Shown one piece after another: positions 8,379-28,897 of a DNA stretch of 64,000 nucleotides (position 1 is the stretch's first letter; each line of letters starts with the position of its first letter). Position numbers and translations under genes: made by a program. The stretch lies in contig JBDTVZ010000003.1 of the NCBI GenBank assembly GCA_040006935.1, forward strand, positions 1,102-65,101, given 5' to 3'. The DNA comes from Candidatus Dojkabacteria bacterium. GTDB lineage: Bacteria; Patescibacteriota; Dojkabacteria; J137. The notes under the pieces were generated by a model. The model had not been told where the DNA came from. It saw only the letters and a list, made by a program, of their open reading frames with translations, and did no database searches.

Positions 8379-8452
<74 letters not shown>

Positions 8453-10170: not shown

Positions 10171-11274
10171 TCAAATCTCCTTCAATAAGTTGTTAGTTCT
10201 ACGGACTGACCCTTCACCCTTTGAATAAACCACAGGGTATCCTACTTCTGTATGATAGTCTGTATTACCAACGGAAATACCTCCTCGAATATTTAACATG
10301 GGAGCATCATTACCTATAAAAGTTGTTGTTTGGGGAGTATCTCCAATTTGTATACTTTCAATTCCATCTGTATTTATTCCATATCGGTCGTAGACCGATA
10401 TGATGTAGTCATTAACTAGATCTCTACAAGCTCTCTTATTAACGGAAACATCAACAATATCAATATTAGGTCTACTTGCAGAACCAGCAAAATAAATTCC
10501 CCAAGTTTGAGTTAGGATTCTGAATGCTTGTAGTAGAGTCATCCTATCTATAACTAATACACCTGTTACTTCCAACCACTCATCCTGAAGTGCTTTATTT
10601 TCAAGTATAAGGTTAAAATCTAAGCCAAAATTAACTCTTGTACCCATTGCAGAAATTAATGCAAAATCTCCGATTTTATATTGAGCTTCTGCTATATTTG
10701 TAGGTTCAAAAAATTTATCACCACCTATCCATTGTGGAGTTAAGGTTACTAGTTCTTCTCGAGTTTCCTTAGCTGTAGTTGCTCTTAGAAGATCAGATAC
10801 ATCAGTATCGGAAACATTTTCCCAGAACGATATTGGCAATAAAGTACTATTAATGAATTCTGCTTCAGTAGAAAATAAATCCCAAGAATTTGCTCCGTTA
10901 CAATTAGACATAACAAATATTAAAGGGGTTCTGCCGTCTCTGCAAAGTAATCTTCCAGCTGTATCATAAGATAGTTCCCCTGCTCTCTCTAAAATCTTTT
11001 TTCTAATGTGTTCACCTAGTACAAATGCCGATTTATCTCGCGCTGTGATTATCGAAATTGCTTCTCCATTCAAAGCATCCTCAATTAGGAGTTGAATATT
11101 CTCATTGTCTAAGTCACTTTGTTGAGTTTCATCAAAGCGAAAATCACCATCATACGTAACTCCATGCTCGCTCACAGTATGATCATAATCAAAATGCTTT
11201 ACTCTTGCTCTTGGAATTATAACCTCACGTAATTCCTTCACAACACCATCGACTGGTGAATAAAAATTCGACAT
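10171..11274 (-). CDS. hypothetical protein
   Basis: 367-aa ORF, good coding length, no TM and no recognisable motif. Last gene of the long minus-strand string. Confidence 0.45.
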   Translation of the reverse strand: MSNFYSPVDGVVKELREVIIPRARVKHFDYDHTVSEHGVTYDGDFRFDETQQSDLDNENIQLLIEDALNGEAISIITARDKSAFVLGEHIRKKILERAGELSYDTAGRLLCRDGRTPLIFVMSNCNGANSWDLFSTEAEFINSTLLPISFWENVSDTDVSDLLRATTAKETREELVTLTPQWIGGDKFFEPTNIAEAQYKIGDFALISAMGTRVNFGLDFNLILENKALQDEWLEVTGVLVIDRMTLLQAFRILTQTWGIYFAGSASRPNIDIVDVSVNKRACRDLVNDYIISVYDRYGINTDGIESIQIGDTPQTTTFIGNDAPMLNIRGGISVGNTDYHTEVGYPVVYSKGEGSVRRTNNLLKEI

Positions 11275-11335
11275 AAGATTTGTAATGAATAAAAAGTTGG
11301 GGAATTATATCATCCAGGAAGGATATTGCGCAATC

Positions 11336-11450
11336 AAGGCAGGCAGGGGGTGAGGTCCTACCTCCCCGAAAGCACGTTCTCTGCTTGGGAGGTCCATATT
11401 AGATTTGCTTTTCGAATCCCAAGGGACGCAGATCTGCGTAGCCTACACTA
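11336..11450 (+). repeat. structured intergenic repeat, copy E (core + short tail; H1 absent)
   Basis: AAGGCAGGCAGGGGGTGAGGTCCT-ACCTCCC-CGAAAGCACGTTCTCTGCTT-GGGAGGT-CCATATTAGATTTGC... The enclosing stem ACCTCCC/GGGAGGT covaries with ACCGCAC/GTGCGGT in copies A-C. Confidence 0.55.
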
Positions 11451-11477
11451 CACTCCTCTTTTTAATTTTTAATTGTT

Positions 11478-13931
11478 CTAAAACCCCGGGAATCCTCCTC
11501 CAAACATTCCTCCTGGTTTCTTTTCCTCAGTCTTTTCTTTTATGAAAGTTCCTCTTAATTTAATCTCATTCTCAATTAAGTTCTTATCTTTACCGTATTT
11601 CAATCTTGAGATTTGTCTTATTATATCTGGTAAATTTGGATCTGGGCTTGGATCAATCATATCGTATGGAGATTCTCCATACCAAGATCTCACTGTAAAT
11701 GTTGGAGTTGGTTTTCCATCAACTTGAATTTTTGTAAATGCTGTTCCGTTTTCGATTTGTTGTAAATCATTTTCTTCAAAATTTCCGTCTAAAACTTTTC
11801 GAAGGAAAGGCGCATCCTCTTCTCCTATTCTGAATATTGCTTTATTACCAACGTTACCAAAAACAGCATCTCTAATTTTATTATCACCTCCAGTTCTTGT
11901 TAACTGTCCTAAGAACTGGTGAGCAATTGTAAGTCCTAATTTGTACTTTCTGGCCTCAGATAAGATAATTTGAATTCCGTCTGTTAAGAAGTTCTGAAAC
12001 TCGTCGATGTATAAGTAGAAAGGAATTCTATCTTTTTCTGGAATTTCGTCTCTTTCCAAAGCTGCAACTAGAATTTTACCGATTAAAATCATTCCTAGAA
12101 GGTTTGCATTCATATCTCCTATTCTACCTTTTGAAAGCTTTGCGATAAGAATTTTCTTCTTATCCATAATATCTCTAAAGTCTATTGTAGAATTTTGTTG
12201 GGCAACAATTGGTCTTAAATATGCGTTTGTTAAGAATGGTGCAAGTTTAGAAACCACATACGGCACAACATTTTTAAGAGATGCCTCTCCTCCAGCTGCT
12301 TCTGCCTGTTTTCTCCAGAAGTCGATGACCTCTTGGTCTTTACACTTCCCTAATTTATAGTTTCTATAACCATCATCTGCAAAGATTTTTGGGATTTCTA
12401 ATAAAGTTGAACCTGACTCTACATCATCTGTTAAAAGCATAATTCCATATCTGAAATATTGCTCAAACATTGGACCTCCAGTTACTTTAAGGTTGTACAA
12501 AGTATCGAAAATATTCAACATTTCGTTTGTTACTAAGGTTCTCTGCTCTGGATTCCTAAACTCCAACATATTCAAACCTACTGGTCTTTCTAAGTCTGAT
12601 GGATCGAATATTACAACATCTTCAACTCGCTCTGGTGGAACTTGAGCCAAGATTTTTTCTGCATCGCTTCCGTGAGGGTCAATGAATGCACAACCATGCC
12701 CCATCTTAATATCTCTAATCATCATTCCTCCCATAAATCCAGATTTACCCGAACCTGTTTGTCCGATGATGTAGAAATGCCTTAAACGTGCATCTGGTTT
12801 TAGAAAAATTTCTTTTTCCTGTCCTCTAAAGGAATTTTTCCCAACATACATAAAATCCGTATCAAAATGACTAGTAGCGAAATCAGGGGCTGGAGCTTTC
12901 TTTGATAAAAGCCATTTGATGTGAGGGGCTTGAACATTTTTATTTGGATAGTGAAAAACCGTTGCAAGTTCTGCAGTATTCAAAATCATTGAGCCTCTAG
13001 GGATTCTGTAAATGAAGTCACTAGATATGGTTTTTACTACATCACCTTTTAATTTTTTAAATTTATTTCCTCCGATTTTACCGTATTGATCAAACGAACT
13101 CATAATATTCGTTAGGTGTGATTCTCCTGAGAATTTATCTGGAGAAACTACAACGACTCTAATATCAGCATGGAAACCATTTTTATCTGCTTTCTTTTCA
13201 ATAAGTTGTAAAGTTTCGTCTGGGACTTTTTGTTTCGGTGTTACAGCTGGCTTACCTTCTGCAGCTTCTTTTGGTTTTGCATCATCCCTAATTTTTTTAA
13301 CATAATCCTTAGAGTTTTTAATCCATTCCCCGCCTGCTGGTGAAATGACCAATTGAAGTGCGGCTGCTTCTCCATCACCTAACTTACTGAAAATGTCTGT
13401 GATTATAGCCATAGTATCCACTGGAAGCTCCTCGTAAGTTTGTATGGGAATTTTAGTATCTTTATCGAGCCCTATTGCTGCGTAGGTGACCTTTGCATGG
13501 TCCGGGAATAAGTTATACTCCTTAACTCTTGTAATCTCCGCTGTAGGATATGCTCCATTAATCTGCCTGTCTATTACGGACGCAATTTTTTTAGGACAAA
13601 CAACATAAAATCTAATACTCTCTTTAAATGCTACAACTTCAAAACTTACAAAAGTTCGAGCACCTATAAATGCTTTAATTCCTGTTAAGCTTTCGCTAAA
13701 GCCAAGAAGACCGAGGAACATTTGCTCCGCTGCCTTGATTTCGACATCGTTTGTTTTAGGTAATCGAATTTCGTAAAACACAAGGTTCAAAGATTTTCTC
13801 ATTAGAACAGCTTCTTTGAAATCTTGCAGAAGTCGTCTGAAAACAAATACAAGCACTACAAAAACTAAAATTGCTAAAGCAAATCCGGTAATGAGAATTA
13901 GAAATGTGTTTTGAGTGTTGTTATCCAACAT
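11478..13931 (-). CDS. VirB4/TrbE/CagE-family type IV secretion ATPase
   Basis: 817 aa. N-terminal TM helix, then an N-terminal domain of about 390 aa. Walker A IIGQTGSGKSG, Walker B LYIDEF. ARKYKLGLTIAHQ region typical of the VirB4/TraC family. Confidence 0.8.
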   Translation of the reverse strand: MLDNNTQNTFLILITGFALAILVFVVLVFVFRRLLQDFKEAVLMRKSLNLVFYEIRLPKTNDVEIKAAEQMFLGLLGFSESLTGIKAFIGARTFVSFEVVAFKESIRFYVVCPKKIASVIDRQINGAYPTAEITRVKEYNLFPDHAKVTYAAIGLDKDTKIPIQTYEELPVDTMAIITDIFSKLGDGEAAALQLVISPAGGEWIKNSKDYVKKIRDDAKPKEAAEGKPAVTPKQKVPDETLQLIEKKADKNGFHADIRVVVVSPDKFSGESHLTNIMSSFDQYGKIGGNKFKKLKGDVVKTISSDFIYRIPRGSMILNTAELATVFHYPNKNVQAPHIKWLLSKKAPAPDFATSHFDTDFMYVGKNSFRGQEKEIFLKPDARLRHFYIIGQTGSGKSGFMGGMMIRDIKMGHGCAFIDPHGSDAEKILAQVPPERVEDVVIFDPSDLERPVGLNMLEFRNPEQRTLVTNEMLNIFDTLYNLKVTGGPMFEQYFRYGIMLLTDDVESGSTLLEIPKIFADDGYRNYKLGKCKDQEVIDFWRKQAEAAGGEASLKNVVPYVVSKLAPFLTNAYLRPIVAQQNSTIDFRDIMDKKKILIAKLSKGRIGDMNANLLGMILIGKILVAALERDEIPEKDRIPFYLYIDEFQNFLTDGIQIILSEARKYKLGLTIAHQFLGQLTRTGGDNKIRDAVFGNVGNKAIFRIGEEDAPFLRKVLDGNFEENDLQQIENGTAFTKIQVDGKPTPTFTVRSWYGESPYDMIDPSPDPNLPDIIRQISRLKYGKDKNLIENEIKLRGTFIKEKTEEKKPGGMFGGGFPGF

Positions 13932-13950
13932 AATAATTTATAATTGAATA

Positions 13951-14511
13951 TTACTTTTCTGCCAATTCTTTAATAAACTTATCCCATAGAACGCTTAGCC
14001 ACCTTTCGGAGGATTTATCATCTTTCTGTGCATTGGCTGCTATGAATTTTTGAGCTTTATTAACATCTGTAGGATCAAAAACTTTAGGATAAAACCCATC
14101 TCCAAAAGGAATATCAATTTTAGGTTCTATAACAGCTTGCTTAGGAGCAATGTTTCTTACTGCTAAATCAGAGGGGGCAGCAGGAGTTGAAACTTCTTTT
14201 GATTTTTCAACTTGCTTTTCTATTTCAAATTTTTTTTCTAAATTAGCATCAAGTTGCTTAAAAGAACTATCTGGCATTGCAGGCATCACTGGCATTGATT
14301 CTACTCCACTCGATGCTTTAGATGGGTCTATCAATTTTGTTTTTACGAAGTTATAAGCTACGTTCAAAAGGACAACTTGACCATTAGGTGCAATTACCAA
14401 AGGTTCTTTAGTTTCGCTAAGTCCAAAAAATTTAAATTCAAATTTTTCAACAGTCTTTAAAATTTCTAAGATTTTTGGATCTGTTATAGATTGAAGTGCA
14501 GTTTGATTCAT
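13951..14511 (-). CDS. hypothetical protein
   Basis: 186-aa ORF directly downstream of the virB4-like gene. No motif recognised. Confidence 0.4.
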   Translation of the reverse strand: MNQTALQSITDPKILEILKTVEKFEFKFFGLSETKEPLVIAPNGQVVLLNVAYNFVKTKLIDPSKASSGVESMPVMPAMPDSSFKQLDANLEKKFEIEKQVEKSKEVSTPAAPSDLAVRNIAPKQAVIEPKIDIPFGDGFYPKVFDPTDVNKAQKFIAANAQKDDKSSERWLSVLWDKFIKELAEK

Positions 14512-14563
14512 AAGTCGTAAATACTTTAAAACAAATACATTCTATCATCTATTTATGATTATT

Positions 14564-15016
14564 TTATCTATATTTTTTCATATCTTGCTCTATGATTCTC
14601 TTCTGTTCTCTCTCTTTTATCTTTTGTCTTTTTTCGTATTTCTTTTTACCTTTTACTAATCCAATTTCTAATTTAATTAAACCTCTGTCATTTGTATATA
14701 CTTGAAGAGGAACAACTGTGGTCCCAGCTGTTTTTAAATTTTCAATTAATTTTCTAATTTGATTTTTTTGAAGCAATAACTTTCTCTCCCTCAGTTCCAA
14801 AAGTTTATCTTGGATGAAAGAAGAAGCTAAAAGTCCAATTCTAGAACCCATTAGAAATAATTCACCATTTCTCTCTCTTATAAAAGCATTTGTAATATTT
14901 GAATTCCCGTTTTTTAAAGATTTAACTTCCCAACCAAATAAAACTATTCCAGCTTCAATCTTATCGATAACCTCATAGTTAAAGTATGCTTTTTTGTTAT
15001 TAATCAGAATTTTCAT
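14564..15016 (-). CDS. smpB: SsrA-binding protein
   Basis: KKAYFNYEVIDKIEAGIVLFGWEVKSL...LLLQK...VPLQVYTNDRGLIKLEIGLVKGKKKYEKR matches SmpB. Start trimmed to the internal Met (MKILINNKK). Confidence 0.85.
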   Translation of the reverse strand: MKILINNKKAYFNYEVIDKIEAGIVLFGWEVKSLKNGNSNITNAFIRERNGELFLMGSRIGLLASSFIQDKLLELRERKLLLQKNQIRKLIENLKTAGTTVVPLQVYTNDRGLIKLEIGLVKGKKKYEKRQKIKEREQKRIIEQDMKKYR

Positions 15017-15087
15017 ATTAGGATTATACAGCCAATACAAAAAAAACTGCACATTTCTGTGCAGTTTAACTTCATTTTATATTTCAA

Positions 15088-15828
15088 TTATCTTCTTAAT
15101 GATTCACTCGTACTGATAATAGATTGTAACTGAGAGACGATATCTTCTAGCTTCCCTCTTTCGAAATCACTTAAATTTTCTCTATTCTCTTCAATTGCAT
15201 TTTCTAAAAAATTAAGAGCATTTTCAACATAAGCCATATGCTTAATAACACCAAACCTACCACTATTCATCTCAATAAGTGATTGTATCCTCCTATCAAA
15301 AACAGCTTTTCTACCAAACATATTCAGAAGGTCTTGATTAGAATCTCCTGTTAAATTCTCAACTTCTCTTATATCTGATGCTTCAGCACCAAATTCATTT
15401 GAATATGAAGCTTTCTTTTCATCAAAAAATTCTTTTGCCCTATCACTTCCTGCAAAGAAACCTTGAGTAAAAAGAGGCGTAAGTAAAATTGCAGATGTAT
15501 CGACCACCACCTCGCTTAAAGTGTCATTTGAATTACGAATAATACTTTGCATCTCTAACTGAAGAGTATCTAATTTTTCATTAAAGTCTTGCACAGCTGT
15601 ATTTAGACTAATCACCCTTGAATCAAACAAATCTGGATTCATTGAATCATCATAAGGCATAAATTCTTGACTTAAGACTCCCATTAAAACAACTGATTTT
15701 TGATAAGCTTTATAGAGCTGTACCAATTGCTCATCTGGAGTACCTTCAAGATTCTCAAATTTTCTTATTAAAACTCCCGCTTCTTCTAAAGTTGGGCTTC
15801 TTAACGACTCTTCTACTGGCAAATTCAT
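15088..15828 (-). CDS. hypothetical protein
   Basis: 246-aa ORF with no TM and no recognised motif. Confidence 0.4.
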   Translation of the reverse strand: MNLPVEESLRSPTLEEAGVLIRKFENLEGTPDEQLVQLYKAYQKSVVLMGVLSQEFMPYDDSMNPDLFDSRVISLNTAVQDFNEKLDTLQLEMQSIIRNSNDTLSEVVVDTSAILLTPLFTQGFFAGSDRAKEFFDEKKASYSNEFGAEASDIREVENLTGDSNQDLLNMFGRKAVFDRRIQSLIEMNSGRFGVIKHMAYVENALNFLENAIEENRENLSDFERGKLEDIVSQLQSIISTSESLRR

Positions 15829-15880
15829 AAGGTAAATTTATAAATAATTAATTGATATTATAGCATTTCACCTTAGTGTC

Positions 15881-18397
15881 TTACAAATCCAATCTAATTA
15901 CTTTAGTCCCATCTAGTACATAAATTGCACTTTCAGATTGGACTACAACAACTTCATCCAAGTCACTGAAGGTTGTCGAATCACTTCCTCTATAATCGTA
16001 TTGTTTAACGAAGTTTATTTTTGCATCGTCAGAATCATCATATTTGAATAATAGAACTCTTCTATTAACCGGATCTCCGACTACAAGATTATTATCTGCA
16101 ACATCTATTGAACTGGCACCTTTTAATGCCTCAAAGTCTGTGTTTAGTAAATTAGTAAATGAGTCAGCAGTCAAAGTATTATCTCCTCCAGCTAAGTATC
16201 TTTTAATTCCTTGAGTTTTTATTAATACCCAAATATCTCTTGGAACGGAAATATCCAAGGCATTTGCAAAATCTGGATCATCTTTCCAATCTGTTTCTGG
16301 ATCTGTTGAAGGTGCTGCTCCTCCAGCAACATAGCCATCATCTTGTGCATTTCTTCTAAATATTTGCCTACTTGTTTGTCTAACTTCGTATAAAGCATTG
16401 TTACCATCATATAGAGCTGCCTCCATTGGCTTTCCTACGCTTGCTGGTGTAAGACCTGCAAATCTTTTTAATGTTGGATCTCCTCCAATGCTAAATTTAC
16501 CTACTGAGCTAGTAGCATCATTATCGTAAAAGATAATATCCCCATCTACATTCCTCACCAATAAGAAAGGTTGTGTTAATCCAGTTGCATATGCTTGTGG
16601 TTGAGCATTAAGGGCATTTGAAGCTACTTTGTAAACAACTCCCCTGGCAGAATCGCTTATGTAAAGATTTCCATTAGAATATACAATGTCCGAAAGTGTA
16701 GCATCCGGGAAATTCTTACCTACATCTGTAACTATCTTTGGGTCTATAACTGCAGTAACTAGCAGAAGATCATCCTGTCTGGACTGAACTTGTTTAGATA
16801 AGTTGTCTAACTCTGTAGTAAATAACCCGGCTCTTTGTTGTAATGAAATATCACTTGTAAGCTTTTGTAATTCATTCAAAAGTAGAGTTTTTTTCTCTTG
16901 ACCTTCGTTTTTAGCCTGAAGAATTTGTGGGGTCAAAGTATCTAAACGATTTCTTAGGTTTGTTAGTTGAGTACTGGCAGTATTAATTTTTTCTTGTTTT
17001 TGCCTAGCATCATCTGCATTTTTTATTCCAACATAAATTAATACAAGTAATACGACGACGACAACTGCCAAAATAATTCGATTTCTCCTTCTTCTTTTAG
17101 CTTTTACCACTCTATCTCTCCTATCATCCGTGCCTATAATCTCTCGTTTAAATAGTTCTAATAATTGATCTAGAACGGATTTAATTCTACTACCAATGTT
17201 TTTTAAGATTTTTGCATATGTTTTATTATTACTCTTTAAAGCTGGCACTACTTTATTTTGAAAAATACTTGAGGCTTTATTTTTAGCTAAATTAGCTTTA
17301 TTAGCTATATTTGTCATTGTTGTAGCTTCTTTAACAACTTCATAATTATTCTCATCGTCTTCAAGAACATAGTTAGTAAACTTCTTATCTTCCATAGGTT
17401 CAAGATCATCTTGGATAGTGAATGTTTCACTCTGAGAAGTTATTCCTTGTGGTTGTCGAAAATTTTTAACTTTTGTAAAAGCTTGTGAAACTAAGGCTGA
17501 AGATTTGATTTTCAGATTACTACCTACTTCCTTTACTTTATTTAAATACTTTGTTGCAGTATTTTCAGGAGCTACATAAATACTTTCATCTTGTTCGGGT
17601 TGAATCGTTGCCGCAGGCGATATATCTTCTTCCACTAAGTGATCTAGGCTTTTATCTACTTTTGGGAGTTGAGCTTCTGCATCTTCAATTGTTTCAACTG
17701 TAAGTTCTTTATCTACCATTGCGGTCTCTTCCTTTGGCATTTCTGTTTGTGGAATAAACCACTCTGCTTTTTCATCTGCTAATATTAAGAATGCAGCTCC
17801 TGTTATGGTTTCTAATTCTTTTAATTTAGAAATATTAAGTTCTTCTAATGTTTCTTGAATAATAAACTCGCCTTTTTCTATAGATTTTGAAGTACCTAAA
17901 CACAGTCTATCTTCCTCTTTTAACTCAACACTTCCAGTTTTAAAGAACCCGAGCATATTAGAATCTACTAGGCCTTTAGAAAGCTCTACAAACTTATTTG
18001 CTCTTTTAATAAAAATCTTGCTCTCGCCTACAACGGCTAGATAAGCAATATTATTTTCGACTACTACAATTGCCATTTCTATGTCTAAACCCTCTTCCGA
18101 AAGACTAGGCTCACGAGACAAAACGTACTCCATCTTGGATTTCATTTTCCAGACAGAATCTTCTAATTTCTCAATATTATCTGTAAATTCTTTTTTTGGA
18201 TTAAAGTAAGTGCCTTGAAGCTCATCTAGAAGAATTTTAGCTATATTCTCAAGACTATATTCGTCTTTCTCTACTGCTATTCTCACTGTTACGAACATTT
18301 CTGCATTAGAAGAGGTATCGTCAGGTCTATATCCATAGACGCCAGACCACTCATTCTCTTTCAATTTTCCAATAAGGTATTCTGCTTTTAATGTCAT
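15881..18397 (-). CDS. large single-pass membrane protein with extracytoplasmic repeat (NHL/beta-propeller-like) C-terminal domain
   Basis: 838 aa. Central TM helix RIILAVVVVVLLVLIYVGI preceded by a basic stretch (KAKRRRRNR). Coiled-coil region after the TM. C-terminal segments such as NGNLYISDSARGVVYKV and NNLVVGDPVNRRVLLFK look like NHL-type repeats. The N-terminal cytoplasmic domain is unassigned. Confidence 0.5.
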   Translation of the reverse strand: MTLKAEYLIGKLKENEWSGVYGYRPDDTSSNAEMFVTVRIAVEKDEYSLENIAKILLDELQGTYFNPKKEFTDNIEKLEDSVWKMKSKMEYVLSREPSLSEEGLDIEMAIVVVENNIAYLAVVGESKIFIKRANKFVELSKGLVDSNMLGFFKTGSVELKEEDRLCLGTSKSIEKGEFIIQETLEELNISKLKELETITGAAFLILADEKAEWFIPQTEMPKEETAMVDKELTVETIEDAEAQLPKVDKSLDHLVEEDISPAATIQPEQDESIYVAPENTATKYLNKVKEVGSNLKIKSSALVSQAFTKVKNFRQPQGITSQSETFTIQDDLEPMEDKKFTNYVLEDDENNYEVVKEATTMTNIANKANLAKNKASSIFQNKVVPALKSNNKTYAKILKNIGSRIKSVLDQLLELFKREIIGTDDRRDRVVKAKRRRRNRIILAVVVVVLLVLIYVGIKNADDARQKQEKINTASTQLTNLRNRLDTLTPQILQAKNEGQEKKTLLLNELQKLTSDISLQQRAGLFTTELDNLSKQVQSRQDDLLLVTAVIDPKIVTDVGKNFPDATLSDIVYSNGNLYISDSARGVVYKVASNALNAQPQAYATGLTQPFLLVRNVDGDIIFYDNDATSSVGKFSIGGDPTLKRFAGLTPASVGKPMEAALYDGNNALYEVRQTSRQIFRRNAQDDGYVAGGAAPSTDPETDWKDDPDFANALDISVPRDIWVLIKTQGIKRYLAGGDNTLTADSFTNLLNTDFEALKGASSIDVADNNLVVGDPVNRRVLLFKYDDSDDAKINFVKQYDYRGSDSTTFSDLDEVVVVQSESAIYVLDGTKVIRLDL

Positions 18398-21115: not shown

Positions 21116-22638
21116 TATGCAAAATTTATTAAAAGAACTTGTCGAGATTGCATTAAATTATTTACAAAATCTAAGATTTCCTGAACAAAGTTACAATTTA
21201 CAATTAAAATTGGTAATAGGTTAGTATTTACATTTACTGACCCACTCTCTCTACCCATTTGTTCTAAAATTTGTGCTTCTAACTCTGGCTTCATTTTACC
21301 TTCTAAACTAAATTCTATATTTTCTTTTTCTATTTTTAAGATATCAACTTCCCTTCTCTTTTTATAATATTCTTCTGTATTAATGCTTTTTGATTCGATC
21401 TCTTTCAATTTAGAATCTGTGTCTATTTGTTCTTTTAAAAGTTTTGTCTTTCCCTCAGATAACTGTGTCAAATTCTTATCTCCTAGTCGTGTGTTCATTG
21501 TTGTTTCGATAAGAGATAACTCACCTTGCAATGCGTTTACCCATGCTGTGTTTAGAATCAACCTATTTTCATCTAAATCCATTTTAGGTGATAGTTGATT
21601 GTTCGAATCAACATCTACATCATCATTGGTAAACCTACCTTCATATCTATTAGCATACCTATTGATGTTCACTAGCAACATCAATACTAGCAAAGTTACA
21701 GCACTAAATAATCCTATAAATAATTGTACCAGTTGAAGTGTAATTATAAAAAATAGTAATGAAAATATACATTGCAGAACTACAAGTGCAACCATCCATT
21801 TTGCTATGAATAAAGGCATCTCTGGGCCTTCTTCTTCTATGTTTCTACCTGGAGTTTTTTTTACAGTTCGAAGATTTGAAGCTAACATTTGTGATCTGCT
21901 TTCTTTTATTTTTTCAACTTTTTGTGAGATTGTTGAGTCCGTTGTAATATTATTAAATTTTGTTAGCTCTTGTTTAATTCTATTCTGAGATTCTATAAGC
22001 ATATTTACCGACGAGAGTTTATCGTCGATAGCTTTCACTTCACGATCTATTCGTTCTTTATCTTTTTTAATTTCTTCTTTATTTTTCTTCTCATTTTGAT
22101 AAGAACTCACCTCAACTTCCATATTCTTTATCTTGACGCTTACTTCTCTATATCTAACTAACTTATCTGATTCTTCCTTGGAAAGTCCCTGTGAAGCTTG
22201 AGTTACAAGGGCTTCTATATTCCCGTCAGGTGAATTATTGATAGGTAAAAATTTTGAAGTTAATTCAGCTAAATTTGTAATTCCTGCTTTATTACAATCG
22301 AGGATTATTTCTTTCCAGGATTCATTATTAATATTCAAACCTGTTTTTTCTGAAAGGATTTGATAGATATTCCCAGGAGTTTCGATACTATTTACAAGAA
22401 TTTTCAGGGTTTTTGTTTGATAGTCCTTTACAAGAGTAATTTTTTCATTTAGTAATTGCATTTCTATTTCCGATGTTTGAATTGTATTGGTTTCTGGGAA
22501 ATTAGTTAGCGAAATTAAATCATTAACTAAAAAAACTAACTTAGAAGATGGAGATAATGTATTTCGAAAATCAATTTCAAAAGTCTCTGATTGTGTTATG
22601 ACTACTCTATATTTTGATATAGACAAAGAATAAGTCAC
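21115..22638 (-). CDS. hypothetical coiled-coil membrane protein
   Basis: 507 aa. Central hydrophobic segment (LFIAKWMVALVVLQCIFSLLFFIITLQLVQLFIGLFSAVTLLVLMLLV). Flanking K/E-rich coiled-coil regions. Its stop overlaps the downstream start. Confidence 0.5.
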   Translation of the reverse strand: MTYSLSISKYRVVITQSETFEIDFRNTLSPSSKLVFLVNDLISLTNFPETNTIQTSEIEMQLLNEKITLVKDYQTKTLKILVNSIETPGNIYQILSEKTGLNINNESWKEIILDCNKAGITNLAELTSKFLPINNSPDGNIEALVTQASQGLSKEESDKLVRYREVSVKIKNMEVEVSSYQNEKKNKEEIKKDKERIDREVKAIDDKLSSVNMLIESQNRIKQELTKFNNITTDSTISQKVEKIKESRSQMLASNLRTVKKTPGRNIEEEGPEMPLFIAKWMVALVVLQCIFSLLFFIITLQLVQLFIGLFSAVTLLVLMLLVNINRYANRYEGRFTNDDVDVDSNNQLSPKMDLDENRLILNTAWVNALQGELSLIETTMNTRLGDKNLTQLSEGKTKLLKEQIDTDSKLKEIESKSINTEEYYKKRREVDILKIEKENIEFSLEGKMKPELEAQILEQMGRESGSVNVNTNLLPILIVNCNFVQEILDFVNNLMQSRQVLLINFA

Positions 22639-22733: not shown

Positions 22734-23486
22734 TTATTCGTTAGAGATTCTTTCTAATTTCCAAATATTGTTCTCACATCTGAAGATATAAGTCTTTGTG
22801 GCTGTTGTGCAGGTCTGAGGATCACCATTTGTTGGACAAGCAAGTCCTGTTAAGCTTCCAATGGAAGAGCTAGATAAGCTTGTTCTTGTCAAATCATCGC
22901 ATGAAGCGAACTGTGATCCATTTGGATCTGTACATAAATCGGTGAAGAAAAATTGGAAACCAATTCCAATGTTATTACCTCCAGTTAAACCTTGATAGCA
23001 TTTGACTTGATTATTTACTCCAAGAAGTTTGAATATCGTAACTAGTATTGGAACAGCAAGGAAAACCAACATAAATCCAATAATATAATTAAGAATTCTC
23101 TTTCTAATTTCTGTAATTTTAGTTACATCTCCTCTTGAGATTAAGTATTGATAACCCAGGTAAACTAGTAATAGGAACGAAAATGTGGCAACTATTGCCC
23201 ATATTGCATACACTACTCTAACAAAAAGGACTTCCAACTCCTGGAGTGCGGGTGGTTTTAAAACAGCCTTTATCCTAACTCCATCTTCATCAATACAATA
23301 AAACTCTCCTTGTGCAGAATCAAATTGAACTGTTGCAGAAATCAATGTTCCGTCTTGTTTAAAACATTGATAGCTACTGGCATTGTTCCCGGAAAAAGGG
23401 GCTTCCTGTATTTGTGCTTTTACTACAGGCGATATGAGTGCGAATAGAACAAAAAATGCTACTGAAGTCAGTATAGACTTTCTCAT
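22734..23486 (-). CDS. pilin-like two-TM protein paralog 1 (signal peptide, Cys-rich N- and C-terminal ectodomains)
   Basis: Signal peptide. TM - LISRGDVTKITEIRKRILNYIIGFMLVF - TM core shared with the five downstream paralogs. Cys-rich C-terminal tail. Confidence 0.5.
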   Translation of the reverse strand: MRKSILTSVAFFVLFALISPVVKAQIQEAPFSGNNASSYQCFKQDGTLISATVQFDSAQGEFYCIDEDGVRIKAVLKPPALQELEVLFVRVVYAIWAIVATFSFLLLVYLGYQYLISRGDVTKITEIRKRILNYIIGFMLVFLAVPILVTIFKLLGVNNQVKCYQGLTGGNNIGIGFQFFFTDLCTDPNGSQFASCDDLTRTSLSSSSIGSLTGLACPTNGDPQTCTTATKTYIFRCENNIWKLERISNE

Positions 23487-23968
23487 AGGTTAGGCTTGAC
23501 TGTATTTGGAATAACGTTATTGATTTCGTTTAAATCTCCTCCAACACTTGCGTTAAAGAATGCAAGGATAATAACTATTCCAATAATACCAATGAACAAA
23601 GCAGCTATACCTATAAATACAGATTTAATAGCTTTTTGTGCTTCTTGAATTTTTGTATCGTCACCTTCACTCCTAATGTATTTGATTGCAGCTCTTATAA
23701 TTATGTAAATTGAAACTACAATAATACCAATGAAGATTAATTGTAATGCTAATCTTACTAGGGAAACTCCTGCTCCAACAGCAACCGATCCGTCAACTTG
23801 ATCTCCGCACAATGTACCTGCTCCAAAGCCTAGGTTTTGAATAAATGGAAATATTGTACAAATCAAATTCTGTGCATGGACTGGCATTGCAAACAATATA
23901 TTATTTAAACTGAACAATGAAAATACTAATGTTGAGATTGCAAATATTTTCTTTGAGATATCTTTCAT
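23483..23968 (-). CDS. pilin-like two-TM protein paralog 2
   Basis: Signal peptide. TM1 - IRSEGDDTKIQEAQKAIKSVFIGIAALF - TM2. 4-nt overlap with the upstream gene. Confidence 0.55.
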   Translation of the reverse strand: MKDISKKIFAISTLVFSLFSLNNILFAMPVHAQNLICTIFPFIQNLGFGAGTLCGDQVDGSVAVGAGVSLVRLALQLIFIGIIVVSIYIIIRAAIKYIRSEGDDTKIQEAQKAIKSVFIGIAALFIGIIGIVIILAFFNASVGGDLNEINNVIPNTVKPNL

Positions 23969-24034
23969 GAATTGTTAATTAAAATATACTTTTATTTATA
24001 TTATAAGAATTATCCTGTCAATGTCAAAAAGAAT

Positions 24035-24403
24035 TTACAAAGGAATGGTTACTCCTGGAGGAACAATGGGAGTTGTATTAATAATTCCCCCTGCTCCAAA
24101 GAATGCTATGACCACTACAAGTCCGATTAATCCAACGAATATGAGCACTATTCCAATAAATACGCCCTTAACCATTGAATATCCTTCTTGTATTTTAGTA
24201 GGATCCCCTTCACTTCTGACAATCTTTAGAACAGCTTTAACTACAATGACAATTCCATAAATAATAATAATGGCAAATATAGAAGCCATACCTATTCTTA
24301 ATAAACCTCCAATACTTGTAAAATTCCAAAAAGGTGAGTTTAGAAATTGAGTACAACCTAATAATCCACATCCAGTTTGATTATCGAAAAACATTCTACT
24401 CAA
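24035..24403 (-). CDS. pilin-like two-TM protein paralog 3
   Basis: TM1 - VRSEGDPTKIQEGYSMVKGVFIGIVLIF - TM2, with a Gly-rich C-terminus. Confidence 0.55.
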   Translation of the reverse strand: MSRMFFDNQTGCGLLGCTQFLNSPFWNFTSIGGLLRIGMASIFAIIIIYGIVIVVKAVLKIVRSEGDPTKIQEGYSMVKGVFIGIVLIFVGLIGLVVVIAFFGAGGIINTTPIVPPGVTIPL

Positions 24404-24469
24404 TTAAAAATTATAAATTAAGAATTATAAGAAGGACTAAAATTCTAGAACCTTTATAATCCCTCATTT

Positions 24470-25009
24470 TTAATTTTGTGAGCTTAAACCGCAAACCTGA
24501 GAAGCAAACGTGGTAGGGTCTTCTCCAGCCGGTGCATTAAAATATGCTTTGAAATAATATTCATACTCTGTATTTGGGCAGCCACTGAACATTTTAGGCC
24601 AATTGAAAATACTACCTATTCCTAATACAAATCCAATTACTGTTAATAATATTGGTATTAAAAAAGTTAAAGCTACGCCAACTAAGCTTGCCTGGATCTT
24701 TTTGTACGACTCTGATAATTTTTCAGGATCTCCTTCACTCCTTACTGCATCTAATCCTGCAAGAAGAATTCTAACAATCCATAGAATTATAACTAAAATG
24801 ATAATTACACTCCCAGCAAATGTGATCCAAGAAAGTACAGTGAAGTACTGGGGATTTATAGAACCAAAAACTGGGAAGAAAGGAATTATAATCGGGTCTA
24901 TATTTAATTTATTACCGGTGATATCTAACGCCTGTGCGTGAAGAACTAAAGGTGAGAAAATAGACAATGAGCCTAAAATTGTTAAGAGCGTTTTCTTTAA
25001 ATTTTTCAT
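24470..25009 (-). CDS. pilin-like two-TM protein paralog 4
   Basis: Signal peptide. TM1 - VRSEGDPEKLSESYKKIQASLVGVALTFL - TM2. C-terminal tail with two Cys. Confidence 0.55.
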   Translation of the reverse strand: MKNLKKTLLTILGSLSIFSPLVLHAQALDITGNKLNIDPIIIPFFPVFGSINPQYFTVLSWITFAGSVIIILVIILWIVRILLAGLDAVRSEGDPEKLSESYKKIQASLVGVALTFLIPILLTVIGFVLGIGSIFNWPKMFSGCPNTEYEYYFKAYFNAPAGEDPTTFASQVCGLSSQN

Positions 25010-25011
25010 TT

Positions 25012-25641
25012 TTAAGTTATAACAATTTCTGTACCTGTATTGGTAACATTAAGATCATTCAAATTCCCAATTCCTAATACTGTTGCTACAAATTGGATTA
25101 TAAATATAAATGACCAAGCAAGTATAAACCCAATTATTAAATTTACAATCTCCTTGTTTATTTTTGAAATATCATCACTTGAAGTTACTCCTGGTCTAAT
25201 TACTGCACCAAGATAAGCTCCTCGAGCTAAAGCATATATTGAAACTATTCCTAAGAAAGTTGATATTATTGCATTAATTAATGAAGGTATGCTTCCAGAT
25301 GAGAATGAAAATTTTGTTCCAAAAATATTAAAGGATCGAATTAAGCTTGCATCCCCAGGATCTATTGTCCCGATTGTACCCCCTCCATTACATTTATTAG
25401 AGCAACAAATTGTTTGTGGATTTAGGAATTTCGCATTTGAACATGAAAAATCGGGAACGTAGCAATTTGTATCGTTTTGGGATTTACAAGCAGTTGGACA
25501 TGCATCTGGTATTCCAAAGGGTGCCTGGCAACCAGCGGGGAATCCTGAATCTGCATTGATTTTATTTACGGATTCGAAGGATAATAGCGCAAAGAAAAAT
25601 ATGCTTAACAAAAGAATACTTTTTGAATATCTTTTAATCAT
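25012..25641 (-). CDS. pilin-like two-TM protein paralog 5 (Cys-rich N-terminal ectodomain)
   Basis: Signal peptide. Roughly 80-aa Cys-rich region (CQAPFGIPDACPTACKSQNDTNCYVPDFSCSNAKFLNPQTICCSNKC). TM1 - IRPGVTSSDDISKINKEIVNLIIGFILA - TM2. Confidence 0.5.
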   Translation of the reverse strand: MIKRYSKSILLLSIFFFALLSFESVNKINADSGFPAGCQAPFGIPDACPTACKSQNDTNCYVPDFSCSNAKFLNPQTICCSNKCNGGGTIGTIDPGDASLIRSFNIFGTKFSFSSGSIPSLINAIISTFLGIVSIYALARGAYLGAVIRPGVTSSDDISKINKEIVNLIIGFILAWSFIFIIQFVATVLGIGNLNDLNVTNTGTEIVIT

Positions 25642-25650
25642 ATTTATTAA

Positions 25651-25959
25651 TTAACCTCCAGATAAACCTAATCCTTGTACTCCTATTAATCCTGCTACAA
25701 AATTTACAATTGTTGGTGCAAGAACTGCCAATACAAAACCAATTATTGCAGCAATGATGATTTTTCTCGCACTCGAAACTTGCTCTGCATTGTCTCTAGC
25801 AGTTAAATACTGAAAAGCTCCAAATAAAAGCATTGCTGCAAATGTTAATAAGAACACAGGGACAACTAATCTTGTAATGGCGTTAATAATATCTTCTAAA
25901 TTATTGAATACAGTGGGGTTTGGGATTTGAAAAGCTTTTCCACTATTAGTTACGTCCAT
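25651..25959 (-). CDS. pilin-like two-TM protein paralog 6
   Basis: 102 aa. TM1 - LTARDNAEQVSSARKIIIAAIIGFVLAV - TM2. Most diverged member of the array. Confidence 0.5.
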   Translation of the reverse strand: MDVTNSGKAFQIPNPTVFNNLEDIINAITRLVVPVFLLTFAAMLLFGAFQYLTARDNAEQVSSARKIIIAAIIGFVLAVLAPTIVNFVAGLIGVQGLGLSGG

Positions 25960-25982
25960 ATTATTTTATTAAAATCTAGATT

Positions 25983-28571
25983 CTATTTAATTTCTTTAAC
26001 TTCAAGTCCACTAAAGTAAACATCGTTTCCTGATTTTAGTCTACCTTGAATTATTAAGTTTGCCAATATATCTTCAATGTTATCTTGCACAACTCTCTTT
26101 AATTCTCGGGCACCATAGATTGGATTGTACGCAAGTGCTGAAAGTTCTTCCAAAGTTTTTTCATCCCAGAATACAGACATACCTTTTGTTTCAAGGTTAC
26201 GATCCAATGCTTTTAGATTAATTTCAACAACCTCTTTGATCTCTTCTTGATTTAAGGACTTAAACATAATTAATTTATCAAATCTGTTTAAGAATTCGAT
26301 TCTGAACTCCTTTCGAAGAATTGGTGCGGTTTCTTTAAGGACTTCATTATATTTTTCCCCCCTCTCAATTAATTCTGCAATTTGTTCGGATGCGGCATTG
26401 GATGTCATTATTATGATTGTATTTGTGAAATCTACTTTTCTACTCATGCCATCAGTTATCGATCCTTCATCTAGTACTTGAAGGAATAAATCTAGAACTT
26501 TTTTATTAGCCTTTTCAATTTCGTCTAACAGAATTAGTGAATATGGTTTTAATTTAACAGCATCCGTTAGATAGCCTCCCACAAAATTACCACCATTATC
26601 AGTATAACCAATAAGCCTATTCAAGTTTGACTCTTCTTGGTATTCGGACATATCTATTCGAATCATTAAGTTTGAGCTACCATAATAAACGTCCGCTAGA
26701 GTTTTTGCGGACTCGGTTTTCCCCACTCCTGTTGGACCATAAAATAAGAAACTCGCTACCGGTTTTTGCTTGAAGCCACTAAGTCCTGACCTTGCTCTTC
26801 TGATTGCCATAGCGATACTTTTAATCGCATCGTCTTGACCCACGACTCCTTCATGCATGGTATCTTCCAGCTTCATTAATCGTTCGGATTCTCCTTGATC
26901 CACTGTTCCTATATTTATTCCCACTTTACTAGAGATTAATTGCTCTGCGATTTGATTATTTAGGTAATTAAGCCCTTGGCTTTTTGCTAATAGTATTGCT
27001 TCCTCTAAAAGATCGATACCCTTATCTGGCATTGATCTTTCGGCTTCAAATCTAGGAGCGAATTCAACTATTTTTTTAATTGCACTTACCTGAACTTTAA
27101 TTCCATATTTATTTTCTAGCTTATCTAATTCGTCTACTAGGATTTGCTGAGAAAGATAACTTGAAGGTTCTTTAATTTCGACAACTTCGAAAAGAGATGC
27201 GAGAGACTTTATGGGTTTAATGTATTTATTGTAAATTGTAAGGTTACTTGTCGCTATTAACCTTAATTTAAGCGCATCAATAGCATTAACTAACAGATTT
27301 ACTACTTCCATCCGACCTTCTTCTCGTATTGACATTACTTGTCCTATCTCTTCTAAAACTAGGATAATATTTCCTGAATTTTTTACTTCCTCTAAGCATT
27401 TTTGAATTATTGCTTTGAAACTATCTATAGAGCCTGCTTTAGTTAAAACCTTATTAAGATCAATGGTAATTAATCTCGAATCCTGAAGGCTGGCTGGAAC
27501 ATCCTCTACGCTCATTTTTGTAGCAAGATACTTTACAAGAGTGGTTTTACCAACGCCAGGTTCTCCAAGTAATAGACATGCCGCTCCTGAACCTTTTTGA
27601 AGAATTCTTAGAAAGTTAGATATTTCGATTTCACGTCCTATCGAAGTTGTAAATTCACCTTTGGCAGATCTCGCAGTTAGGTCCTCTGAGTAAATATCCA
27701 AAGTTGGGGTAGCACGAGAAGTATATGACCGGTTGATAGGGCCTGTGGGTTTAAGTTTAGAAATAATTTTCCATCTTTTGTAATAATTTTCTTTTCTTAA
27801 TTCGTTTTTTTGCCAAACTTCAAGTGAATTAATGTCTAATTCGTTTACTCCAAAGCTTAATAAAGCACTTTTTAAAACTCCTCTACATAAAACAAAGAAC
27901 ATTGTTACCACATCGATTTTGTCTCCTCCTAAAAATATTGCTTCTTGAGTACTAGCTACTAAAAGACCAATATAATTGGAAGTGAAAGTGCAATCAATCG
28001 TTTGCAAATACGACATGGATTTCTGAATTATATTTGAAGAATTTACCCCTAATCTTTTCTCAATCAGTTCCCGAAGATTTGAATGATTTAATACATACGA
28101 AATGAAAATTTTAAGAAAGTCTTTTTCAGATTCAAAGTATAAGTTATCTAAAACAGTTAAAAGTTCCACGGTCAAAAATTCATTTATAATCAGTCCATTT
28201 CTTTTTCCTTTAGTTGCCCTATCCAACTCTTTTGGTAAGTTTGTAATTCGATCAGAATCGAGAAATTCTTCTCTATTTCGTTTAAGGAAGAGTCCATAAA
28301 GCCCTACTGGCATTGCCATATAAGCTAAGAGATATTCAAAAGAGCTGGGGAATAAATAACCTTGTAAATCGAATCCAGTAAAAAATATTGTTATAAAAAG
28401 ACTAGATAAAATAATTAATATAGCTAAAACAACAAGTGCGTTACCAAAACTTTTTTCAATAGTAATTTTATTCTTTAGCCCCCCTCTATCTTTAAATAAA
28501 TGAGATAAATCTATCCGGACATCTACCCCATTAACTGTTCCTATTTTTTGAGTTCCTCTTAATATTTTCAT
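25983..28571 (-). CDS. Clp/Hsp100-family double AAA+ ATPase (ClpC/ClpB-like) with N-terminal transmembrane extension
   Basis: N-terminal region of about 100 aa with two hydrophobic helices. Clp_N-like repeats follow. D1 Walker A LLLGEPGVGKTTL preceded by DLTARSAKGEFTTSIGREIEI. D2 FLFYGPTGVGKTE...RLIGYTDNGGNFVGGYLTDAV...LLDEIEKA. Confidence 0.75.
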   Translation of the reverse strand: MKILRGTQKIGTVNGVDVRIDLSHLFKDRGGLKNKITIEKSFGNALVVLAILIILSSLFITIFFTGFDLQGYLFPSSFEYLLAYMAMPVGLYGLFLKRNREEFLDSDRITNLPKELDRATKGKRNGLIINEFLTVELLTVLDNLYFESEKDFLKIFISYVLNHSNLRELIEKRLGVNSSNIIQKSMSYLQTIDCTFTSNYIGLLVASTQEAIFLGGDKIDVVTMFFVLCRGVLKSALLSFGVNELDINSLEVWQKNELRKENYYKRWKIISKLKPTGPINRSYTSRATPTLDIYSEDLTARSAKGEFTTSIGREIEISNFLRILQKGSGAACLLLGEPGVGKTTLVKYLATKMSVEDVPASLQDSRLITIDLNKVLTKAGSIDSFKAIIQKCLEEVKNSGNIILVLEEIGQVMSIREEGRMEVVNLLVNAIDALKLRLIATSNLTIYNKYIKPIKSLASLFEVVEIKEPSSYLSQQILVDELDKLENKYGIKVQVSAIKKIVEFAPRFEAERSMPDKGIDLLEEAILLAKSQGLNYLNNQIAEQLISSKVGINIGTVDQGESERLMKLEDTMHEGVVGQDDAIKSIAMAIRRARSGLSGFKQKPVASFLFYGPTGVGKTESAKTLADVYYGSSNLMIRIDMSEYQEESNLNRLIGYTDNGGNFVGGYLTDAVKLKPYSLILLDEIEKANKKVLDLFLQVLDEGSITDGMSRKVDFTNTIIIMTSNAASEQIAELIERGEKYNEVLKETAPILRKEFRIEFLNRFDKLIMFKSLNQEEIKEVVEINLKALDRNLETKGMSVFWDEKTLEELSALAYNPIYGARELKRVVQDNIEDILANLIIQGRLKSGNDVYFSGLEVKEIK

Positions 28572-28897
28572 ATTTGAAATCTCAGAAAGTTAATAATTTG
28601 CAATGGAAGGATCAAAGGAAGTGAAAATAGGAAGATAAATATTAATACATTCGGAACAATAAAAATAAAACTAACTACACTACCACTTGCAATCCACCAT
28701 AACCTGATTATTATTCCTAAAAATTTCCCCAGGGATGAACTATCTTGATATAAAGGTTTTCCAAAATTCTTGGCATTAGGCAATGCATTGGTTACATTGA
28801 GTAGATAAGAAAAACGAAGCGTAACATGATCTCGAAAGAAACCAAGAACAAAAATTTGATAGTACCAAACAAAGAAATTTAGAATATATTCTTTCAT
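28568..28897 (-). CDS. small polytopic membrane protein (translationally coupled to the Clp-like gene)
   Basis: 109-aa hydrophobic ORF. Its stop overlaps the start of the Clp-like gene by 4 nt. First gene of the long minus-strand string. Confidence 0.45.
   Translation of the reverse strand: MKEYILNFFVWYYQIFVLGFFRDHVTLRFSYLLNVTNALPNAKNFGKPLYQDSSSLGKFLGIIIRLWWIASGSVVSFIFIVPNVLIFIFLFSLPLILPLQIINFLRFQI

Follow-up and report, generated by a model that had tools for sequence, protein, structure and literature searches.

Positions 10171-28897 of a 64,000-nucleotide stretch of a Candidatus Dojkabacteria genome (assembly GCA_040006935.1, contig JBDTVZ010000003.1, positions 1,102 to 65,101; hereafter the window) hold a string of 18 minus-strand open reading frames (ORFs) separated by short gaps. 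The string includes an array of six VirB2-type pilins, a type IV secretion system (T4SS)-superfamily ATPase and a peptidoglycan-remodelling enzyme (Table 1). A preliminary description of this DNA had counted about 20 uninterrupted minus-strand genes; that count was too high, but the genes are co-directional and no long plus-strand gene lies among them. The four junctions it gave as ATGA do all overlap, by 4 nt as ATGA at 23483 and 28568 and by 1 nt as TAATG at 19364 and 21115. Nearly all of its domain-level reading is borne out. Profile matches recovered the SpoIID/LytB protein with its long coiled coil, the bacterial PH-domain (bPH) membrane protein, smpB and the pilin-like paralogues; the repeat domain of the single-pass 838-amino-acid (aa) protein is an NHL propeller, the 507-aa coiled-coil protein has a visible transmembrane (TM) hairpin, and the Clp/Hsp100 protein combines a double AAA+ module with predicted TM segments. 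Pfam scans of the larger ORFs of the window also agree with its statement that relaxase, VirB11 and VirD4 are missing, and returned no second T4SS ATPase. The shared orientation is in itself little informative, because about 87% of coding bases between 1 and 51.6 kb lie on the minus strand.

Table 1. Genes of the string at 10171-28897, listed in the direction of transcription
Feature	Position	Strand	Assignment
109-aa two-TM protein	28568-28897	-	ATGA-coupled to the Clp gene
862-aa membrane-anchored Clp/Hsp100 double-ring AAA+ ATPase	25983-28571	-	AAA_2, AAA, ClpB_D2-small
Six tandem VirB2-type (T4SS_pilin) two-TM paralogues	22734-25959	-	PF18895 and shared core
Pilin 1, 102 aa	25651-25959	-	PF18895, E 1.6e-12, above gathering score
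Pilin 2, 209 aa	25012-25641	-	PF18895, below gathering score
Pilin 3, 179 aa	24470-25009	-	PF18895, below gathering score
Pilin 4, 122 aa	24035-24403	-	No Pfam match; two-TM core present
Pilin 5, 161 aa	23483-23968	-	PF18895, below gathering score
Pilin 6, 250 aa	22734-23486	-	PF18895, E 4.6e-8, above gathering score
507-aa coiled-coil protein with TM hairpin	21115-22638	-	Degenerate membrane-inserted SbcC/YhaN-like ATPase relative
583-aa SpoIID/LytB-type peptidoglycan-remodelling enzyme	19364-21115	-	TIGR02669, E 2e-33, 116 bits (cutoff 83); PF08486
224-aa bPH-domain (bPH_3) membrane protein	18690-19364	-	PF14470, 24.8 bits, above cutoff
80-aa two-TM DUF5657 protein	18476-18718	-	PF18901, 28.8 bits, above cutoff; overlaps the bPH gene
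838-aa single-pass membrane protein	15881-18397	-	PP2C-like domain, TM 436-464, coiled coil, NHL propeller
246-aa orphan	15088-15828	-	Variable insertion slot, followed by the hairpin at 15044-15067
smpB	14564-15052	-	PF01668, E 1e-46
186-aa soluble protein	13951-14511	-	No family; directly upstream of the ATPase gene
817-aa membrane-anchored T4SS-superfamily ATPase	11478-13931	-	N-terminal TM helix, VirB4-like N-domain (DUF8128), RecA-type motor
367-aa orphan	10171-11274	-	203-bp gap to the ATPase gene

The pilins, numbered in the order in which they are transcribed, form a divergent family. Five of the six match PF18895, two over the gathering score and three under it, and all six share a core of TM1, an (R/S)xEGDxxKI loop and TM2 at pairwise identities of 12-42%; four carry signal peptides and Cys-rich extensions. 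The 102-aa pilin shares 82% identity with its counterpart in the closest relative, compared with 55-61% for the other five and 61-81% for neighbouring genes, and this conserved 102-aa protein is likely to be the major subunit. Orthologous arrays are found in at least 13 Dojkabacteria loci. The PF18895 matches, like the PF18901 match of the DUF5657 protein, fit an origin in the candidate phyla radiation (CPR). Type IV pili use pilins that have a class III signal peptide and a single N-terminal TM helix, and depend on PilB, PilT and PilC. We rejected this assignment: the proteins here have two TM helices and PF18895 rather than membership of type IV pilin families, and PilB, PilT and PilC were not found in the string.

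At the downstream end of the string lies an ATPase whose RecA-type motor domain has intact Walker A and B motifs and whose nearest relatives are from Dojkabacteria, one protein of a Dojkabacteria metagenome-assembled genome being 100% identical to it. It matches TraG-D_C and DUF87 in Pfam, with no match to PF19044, and SXT TraD, a CD1115 VirD4-like model and TOL TraD in NCBIfam. A search of the Protein Data Bank (PDB) with the single sequence gave no match, and a family profile matched only DotL and TrwB among PDB sequences, confined to the Walker A region; relatives are annotated with the DUF8128 N-domain, TrwB_AAD_bind and T4SS-DNA_transf. The AlphaFold model is confident (predicted local distance difference test, pLDDT, 84.9). 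Foldseek ranks R388 TrwK/VirB4 first for it, with approximately full-length alignments (E 2.8e-14), and the nearest match of the motor domain is a Gram-positive VirB4; the comparison structures are R388 TrwK/VirB4 and Thermoanaerobacter VirB4 (PDB 7o42, 8rtd and 4ag5). Modelled alone, the N-domain (residues 47-345; pLDDT 84.5) has TrwK/VirB4 chains as its top 13 PDB matches (E 7e-7 to 4e-5, TMq 0.45-0.53), followed by unrelated folds. We know of no coupling protein with a VirB4-type N-domain.

From the predicted fold we conclude that the 817-aa protein has a VirB4 architecture, a VirB4-like N-domain joined to a RecA-like C-domain with intact Walker motifs, to which its own TM anchor is added, and that its family is separate from the TrsD+VirB4 pair described in the literature. 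The preliminary description had called it a VirB4/TrbE-class ATPase and had named a grouping of it with FtsK/HerA rather than VirB4, together with matches of the small proteins to unrelated families, as one outcome that would refute its T4SS-like reading. The model puts TrwK/VirB4 first, which upholds the architecture, and the protein is not closer to FtsK/HerA than to VirB4/VirD4; the label needs qualifying, as the protein is not a canonical PF19044+TrsD VirB4 and its sequence matches resemble those of type IV coupling proteins (T4CPs).

Outside the CPR, the closest full-length homologue (hhalign E 1.5e-41, blastp 1.7e-39, HMM 6e-68) is a DUF87 protein encoded at 3558-6215 of Bacillus subtilis plasmid NZ_CP154917.1 (locus L005), a 27-kb Tcp-like plasmid labelled non-mobilizable by MOB-suite, as are 177 of the 222 plasmids that bear homologues. 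The plasmid homologues come from Bacillus, Streptomyces, haloarchaea and Sulfolobus, a host range of MPF_FATA type that we count in favour of a T4SS role. The relaxase neighbour of the B. subtilis homologue and the non-mobilizable labels suggest an under-recognised family of conjugation ATPases in Firmicutes, actinobacteria and archaea.

Between the pilins and the ATPase, the SpoIID/LytB-domain protein combines a signal anchor with an N-terminal coiled coil of about 230 aa, and its orthologues sit at the same position in related loci. It provides the dedicated peptidoglycan hydrolase typical of a T4SS, and is a candidate functional analogue of VirB1 rather than a VirB1/CHAP homologue. Loci with SpoIID only (L017, L023, L025 and others) were set aside as a paralogue in unrelated contexts. 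Outside the string, the window encodes two more wall hydrolases: a GH25 muramidase at 7213-7992 (+) and an Amidase_3 at 57381-58577 (+).

The bPH/DUF5657 pair follows SpoIID in every lineage examined. Beyond it, the 838-aa protein resembles PknD (PDB 1rwi) in placing an extracytoplasmic NHL propeller (E 1e-11) behind a single TM helix and a cytoplasmic signalling-type domain, and differs in that the latter is PP2C-like (PstP, E 4e-3 only) and not a kinase. A profile of its family matched Pizza and PknD propellers (E 2.5e-22 to 1e-11) over the extracytoplasmic half and the PstP PP2C domain over the cytoplasmic half; the propeller is six-bladed, of the PknD-sensor type, and the NHL repeat is seen in 11 of 23 family members. 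PP2C-like catalysis is doubtful because few acidic residues are conserved in the family, and judged from its sequence the cytoplasmic domain is probably degenerate. PHROGs gave a single weak match to this protein (E 0.0035). The 186-aa protein has ten orthologues, all in the nearer Dojkabacteria clade; it matches nothing in Pfam, NCBIfam, PHROG or PADLOC, and shows no homology to TrsD of pGO1 or to those small ORFs that lie upstream of the DUF8128 ATPases of other CPR classes.

To follow the arrangement across relatives, species-representative genomes were searched with the SpoIID protein and the window's proteins were mapped onto the 40 loci obtained, almost all of them Dojkabacteria/WS6 metagenome-assembled genomes, some carrying an automatic 'Saccharibacteria' label. 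The gene order is kept in about 30 Dojkabacteria species. At least nine loci have the full order groES-groEL-109-Clp-six pilins-507-SpoIID-bPH-DUF5657-838-SmpB-186-ATPase, followed by xerC-p136-ftsH, and several more have partial copies. Four contigs with ATPase homologues of 43-74% identity show [pilins]-~510 aa-SpoIID-bPH-DUF5657-~800 aa-SmpB-~185 aa-ATPase, and lineages so distant that the ATPase is about 42% identical retain SpoIID-bPH-838-SmpB-ATPase. The order from pilins to ATPase is kept at 35-80% amino-acid identity, which we count in favour of the reading adopted below, and the two lie within about 10 kb of each other in at least 13 loci (ATPase identity 41-77%). Chance juxtaposition, which the preliminary description had offered as an alternative to be checked by synteny, does not account for this conservation, which extends to unrelated flanks. 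A class-conserved Dojkabacteria layout with SpoIID, bPH/DUF5657, a PP2C-like/NHL protein and an embedded smpB goes beyond the literature examined and is not described in the papers on Patescibacteria T4SSs (PMC10633639, PMC12102498, PMC12857230). The main text of a 2025 survey (PMC12102498) is silent on Dojkabacteria, SpoIID, ClpB and SmpB, the class being named only in genome tables and in one list of the preprint, and no mention of DUF8128 or DUF5657 was found in the literature searched.

That survey, of 3,035 Patescibacteria genomes (Quinonero-Coronel et al. 2025), described a distinct VirB4 clade nested in MPF_FATA, with TrsD, VirB3 and VirB6 widespread, VirB6 scarce in some CPR classes, and VirB2 arrays of 2-11 genes at about 25% mean identity (PMC12102498). 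In the saccharibacterium Southlakia epibionticum, the T4SS genes (SEML1_0006-0019) were reported to include pilin arrays that are essential, but neither a relaxase nor a coupling protein (PMC10633639, PMC12102498). A 2025 review (PMC12857230) ranks the Patescibacteria T4SS within the T4SS superfamily as a new branch, and tubular structures that may be T4SS pili are shown at a parasite-host interface in a 2026 preprint. The Dojkabacteria locus is like this system in being chromosomal, in its monoderm and ultrasmall host, in its divergent PF18895 array and VirB4-superfamily ATPase, in having no relaxase and a wall hydrolase of non-VirB1 type nearby, and in its presumed role in host interaction. 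It is unlike it in several respects: TrsD, PrgI/VirB3 (PF12666) and VirB6 were not detected; in place of a PF19044 VirB4 with a separate TrsD it has an ATPase to which a VirB4-like N-domain (DUF8128) is fused and which carries a TM anchor of its own; its wall enzyme is of SpoIID type; and bPH/DUF5657, the PP2C-like/NHL protein and smpB are conserved inside the string.

With the MPF_FATA T4SSs of Gram-positive bacteria (pCF10 Prg/Pcf, pGO1 Trs and the pCW3/Tcp-like Bacillus plasmids) the locus shares a monoderm envelope, the lack of an outer-membrane core and a dedicated peptidoglycan enzyme, and with the Tcp-like Bacillus plasmid a full-length homologous DUF87 ATPase. Those systems, however, have a relaxase, a T4CP and VirB6-, VirB8- and VirB3-like proteins, and usually no pilin. 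Nor did the scanned ORFs of the window yield the relaxase and separate coupling protein of a conjugative T4SS or integrative and conjugative element, and the locus is not in a mobile-element setting. The preliminary description had judged the gene combination unlike any textbook T4SS and more probably a lineage-specific surface or contact apparatus than a conjugation system. The first point stands in so far as VirB3, VirB6, VirB8 and relaxase were not detected, but the combination is not unprecedented, being a class variant of a described system; the second is also the conclusion reached for Patescibacteria T4SSs in the literature (PMC10633639, PMC12102498, PMC12857230).

On balance we favour, with moderate confidence, the view that the locus encodes the Dojkabacteria form of the T4SS-like pilus apparatus already known from Patescibacteria, set in a class-conserved housekeeping neighbourhood. 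The parts we assign to it are the six-pilin array, the ATPase of VirB4 architecture and the SpoIID enzyme; the bPH/DUF5657 pair and the PP2C-like/NHL protein are included tentatively. The earlier proposal that the whole interval of about 19 kb forms one apparatus does not survive the comparison with relatives. The 246-aa and 367-aa genes are missing from all 40 related loci, the 507-aa gene encodes a degenerate protein of SbcC/YhaN-like type, smpB has a housekeeping role, and the Clp/109 pair sits beside groESL and is missing in at least one relative that keeps the pilins, locus L018. We count smpB, the 507-aa protein and the two orphans as non-components, and the Clp/109 pair, together with groESL, as probable neighbours.

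The analysis establishes which domains are present, how the ATPase folds and that gene order is conserved; the mechanism we propose draws on analogy with canonical VirB4/VirB2 systems and on the published epibiotic context. The two-TM pilins would insert in the membrane, four of them with signal peptides and variable, Cys-rich exposed extensions. A hexameric ATPase, anchored by its own N-terminal helix, would pull the pilins out and polymerize them into a conjugative-type pilus or tube, as canonical VirB4 does, while SpoIID, held away from the membrane on its coiled-coil stalk, could open the peptidoglycan locally. The NHL propeller may bind or sense an external ligand, on the host surface or the wall, and signal inward. 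Given that neither a relaxase nor a separate coupling protein was found, such an apparatus would most likely serve contact or exchange with host cells in an epibiotic lifestyle, not conjugation.

Several results weigh against a single pilus machine of this kind. The profile comparisons suggested in the preliminary description recovered VirB2-type pilins and none of VirB3, VirB6, VirB8/TcpC or PrgH. PF12666 was not matched, and in hhalign comparisons with PrgI and TrsC neither the bPH/DUF5657 pair nor the 109-aa family gave a significant match; DUF5657 and the 109-aa protein are two-TM proteins of VirB3-like size, and one of them may be an analogue. A hydropathy scan found no protein with five or more TM segments in the string that could be a VirB6; TrsL, PrgH and TrsF were unmatched; for VirB8/TcpC, Pfam gave no match and neither did hhalign against PrgL and TcpC-like proteins; and TrsD was not detected by Pfam or by profile comparison with pCF10 and pGO1. 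PrgH, PrgI and PrgL, and TrsC, TrsD, TrsF and TrsL, all have no match among the locus proteins. When the 186-aa, DUF5657, bPH, 109-aa, 507-aa and pilin families were compared by hhalign with 20 small T4SS proteins of pCF10, pGO1 and Bacillus plasmids, none matched significantly, the best being the 507-aa TM hairpin against TrsC at 15% probability. The ATPase also lacks the features of the published CPR clade, which consists mostly of PF19044 VirB4 with TrsD adjacent: in the portion of the survey's Table S3 considered here, nearly all CPR VirB4 rows stand beside TrsD and most are PF19044, a few being PF01935, PF12846 or without a Pfam assignment (PMC12102498).

Such gaps invite a different account, in which separate modules lie side by side in a small CPR genome that rarely rearranges. 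The pilins would be served by canonical VirB4, TrsD, VirB3 and VirB6 encoded elsewhere, and the SpoIID-bPH-DUF5657-838-smpB-186-ATPase operon would act, for example, in envelope remodelling at division or in DNA or protein translocation. We think this rather unlikely, but several findings favour it. The sequence matches of the ATPase (TraG-D_C, SXT TraD, DotL, TrwB) lean weakly towards a coupling protein or HerA, and its Bacillus homologue adjoins a Replic_Relax relaxase, the position of a coupling protein, on a plasmid that separately encodes a TcpF-type VirB4 (AAA_10, E 8e-116) and TcpC. 'T4CP' matches number about two per CPR genome, mostly far from virB4, and that of Southlakia is not essential (PMC12102498). 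In distant Dojkabacteria the SpoIID-to-ATPase core has no adjacent pilins, with SbcD/SbcC-like genes upstream instead or pilins several kilobases off, and in other CPR classes DUF8128 ATPases have unrelated neighbours, neither pilins nor SpoIID among them. The housekeeping flanks (groESL, xerC, ftsH) are as conserved as the string, and because such plainly unrelated genes are conserved too, synteny alone does not define one machine. Within the pilin array, a perfect sigma-70 consensus at 24027-24000 (-) (TTGACA-16-TATAAT, 12/12), in the 66-bp gap between pilin genes 4 and 5, suggests separate transcription units. Against this account stand the VirB4-specific N-domain of the ATPase, the proximity of its motor domain to a Gram-positive VirB4 and the close linkage of pilins and ATPase in at least 13 loci. 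Nor did the scanned ORFs of the 64-kb window include a canonical VirB4, though the genome's canonical VirB4 may lie outside it.

Two further readings differ in what else they would add to the apparatus, or in how it came to be there. In the first, the membrane Clp/Hsp100 protein and its 109-aa partner are true components, forming a ClpV-like unfoldase that extracts or recycles pilins beside the VirB4-like motor. The pair is ATGA-coupled and lies directly upstream of the pilin array, 23 bp from its first gene, and the 109-Clp-pilin order, between groEL and the pilins, recurs in 12 loci. The Clp protein, which matches ClpB, ClpA and ClpV models at E 1e-119 to 1e-142, has predicted N-terminal TM segments where Clp_N would be and no Clp_N domain; its sequence, read by eye, has neither an M-domain, the D1-D2 spacing being too short, nor an IGF/IGL ClpP loop. 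The full architecture is limited to about 22 Dojkabacteria clusters, after which scores drop steeply to ordinary ClpB/ClpC, and its N-terminal 310 aa as query returned one fragment only. Yet the pair directly follows groES-groEL, a typical chaperone neighbourhood, L018 has groEL and then pilins without Clp or 109, more distant pilin-bearing Dojkabacteria have no Clp nearby, and a Daviesbacteria Clp without Clp_N has no pilin neighbours. To our knowledge, no T4SS employs a Clp ATPase. A link of the pair to the pilins is uncertain and its membership of the apparatus improbable. The second reading, an integrated conjugative or mobile element minus its relaxase, we hold to be very improbable indeed. 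T4SS-family genes are present, and the surroundings include a tyrosine recombinase gene (9163-10014) and tRNA genes, but the recombinase is a conserved XerC-like gene found at the same position in most relatives, and the scanned ORFs of the window include no relaxase or replication gene. We rejected this reading on composition and position: the string matches its flanks in GC content and skew, and the locus occupies one fixed chromosomal position across the class.

The DUF8128 proteins are a CPR-wide ATPase family of VirB4 architecture that surveys are likely to be counting as coupling proteins, a point that goes beyond the literature examined; in the part of Table S3 drawn on here, proteins that carry PF12696, PF10412 or PF02534 count as T4CPs (PMC12102498). 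A bolder proposal, which we offer as a long shot, is that DUF8128 ATPases are an unrecognised second VirB4 lineage scored as 'T4CP', and that in Dojkabacteria one of them drives the pilus in place of TrsD+VirB4, together with SpoIID, the NHL sensor and possibly a ClpV-like pilin-recycling unfoldase, as a minimal contact pilus without a VirB3/6/8 channel. Patescibacteria represent a large share of the diversity of bacteria and apparently live on other cells, and in the one species studied by genetics the T4SS-like pilin loci are essential. The present locus shows how a whole class, Dojkabacteria, arranges such genes. Should the DUF8128 ATPase drive the pilus, the CPR component list would be revised and a much simpler machine would be suggested; should it not, the locus cautions that conserved co-directional strings in tiny genomes mix unrelated functions.

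The remaining genes of the string have histories of their own. The 507-aa protein aligns end to end, central TM hairpin included, with a 719-aa AAA_23/SbcC protein of locus L016 (hhalign probability 99.3%, E 2e-20, 506 columns), and in this resembles SbcC/Rad50-type AAA_23/AAA_27 (YhaN) ATPases. Unlike them it has lost both Walker motifs and has no SbcD-like partner gene, so that it cannot be an ATPase; it is probably not a T4SS part. In distant Dojkabacteria the 719-aa protein has a Metallophos gene as its partner, upstream of SpoIID. Such pairs of a Metallophos (SbcD-like) protein and an SbcC/AAA_23/AAA_27 ATPase with a central TM hairpin were seen upstream of SpoIID at L016:6725-9938, L004:250-1965 and L049:295-3509; the 507-aa protein is a shortened derivative of this ATPase that has lost its motifs, and a membrane-inserted SMC-like ATPase is unusual in itself. 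The family is presumably tied to B. subtilis YhaN/SbcE, a relationship we assume from AAA_27 Pfam matches rather than from direct comparison. A second ATPase, 35% identical to the motor domain of the 817-aa protein (TrwB_AAD_bind, TraG-D_C, DUF87, AAA_10), is encoded in one Dojkabacteria genome at L010:17-1291, upstream of the 109/Clp pair and at the place that groEL takes in other genomes.

In every Dojkabacteria locus examined, smpB stands between the NHL-propeller gene and the ATPase. Its true start is probably the ATG at 15016, as the orthologue in L008 begins MKVLINNKK, and a tmRNA gene lies about 25 kb away at 39416-39862 (-). What lies between the 838-aa gene and smpB varies: the 246-aa gene there has no homologue in 44 related loci, and the closest relative carries two small membrane proteins and a 594-aa protein instead (L008:12542-14984). 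The 367-aa gene likewise has no homologue in any related locus, the relatives running from the ATPase gene to xerC, and its product has no family match in Pfam, NCBIfam, PHROG or PADLOC; a PADLOC scan of the orphan ORFs returned nothing. Neither orphan is a part of the system.

Promoter-like sites are as numerous as expected from shuffled sequence. The consensus at 24000-24027 (-) could serve the last two pilins and downstream genes separately, and it may mark a transcription-unit boundary, as may a perfect 10-bp hairpin between the 246-aa gene and smpB (15044-15067) and a terminator downstream of groEL (29532-29499). GC content in the window is about 34%, and GC skew is negative from 1 to about 52 kb. 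At 51585-51835, between fmt (50640-51584, -) and ileS (51836-54811, +), the skew turns from negative to positive and the genes from minus to plus, the pattern expected of a replication origin, from which the string would be some 23-41 kb away; a search of the 64-kb window found no dnaA gene and no enrichment of DnaA boxes. The interval 31640-34980 (-) holds, just upstream of groES, a gene for a 681-aa protein with no family match and with a weak orthologue at the same position in L018, and beyond it one for a 407-aa FtsA/MreB/PilM-like actin-fold protein. A tRNA-Ile gene with the anticodon UAU, uncommon in bacteria, follows directly downstream of the string at 10042-10117 (-), and two genes of the tRNA-Met(CAU) type are near it at 7048-7121 (-) and 8378-8452 (-). 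Finally, a LexA-like S24 peptidase (42883-43311, +) and a Y-family (IMS) polymerase (48453-49733, -) point to an SOS-type mutagenesis module in a very small genome.

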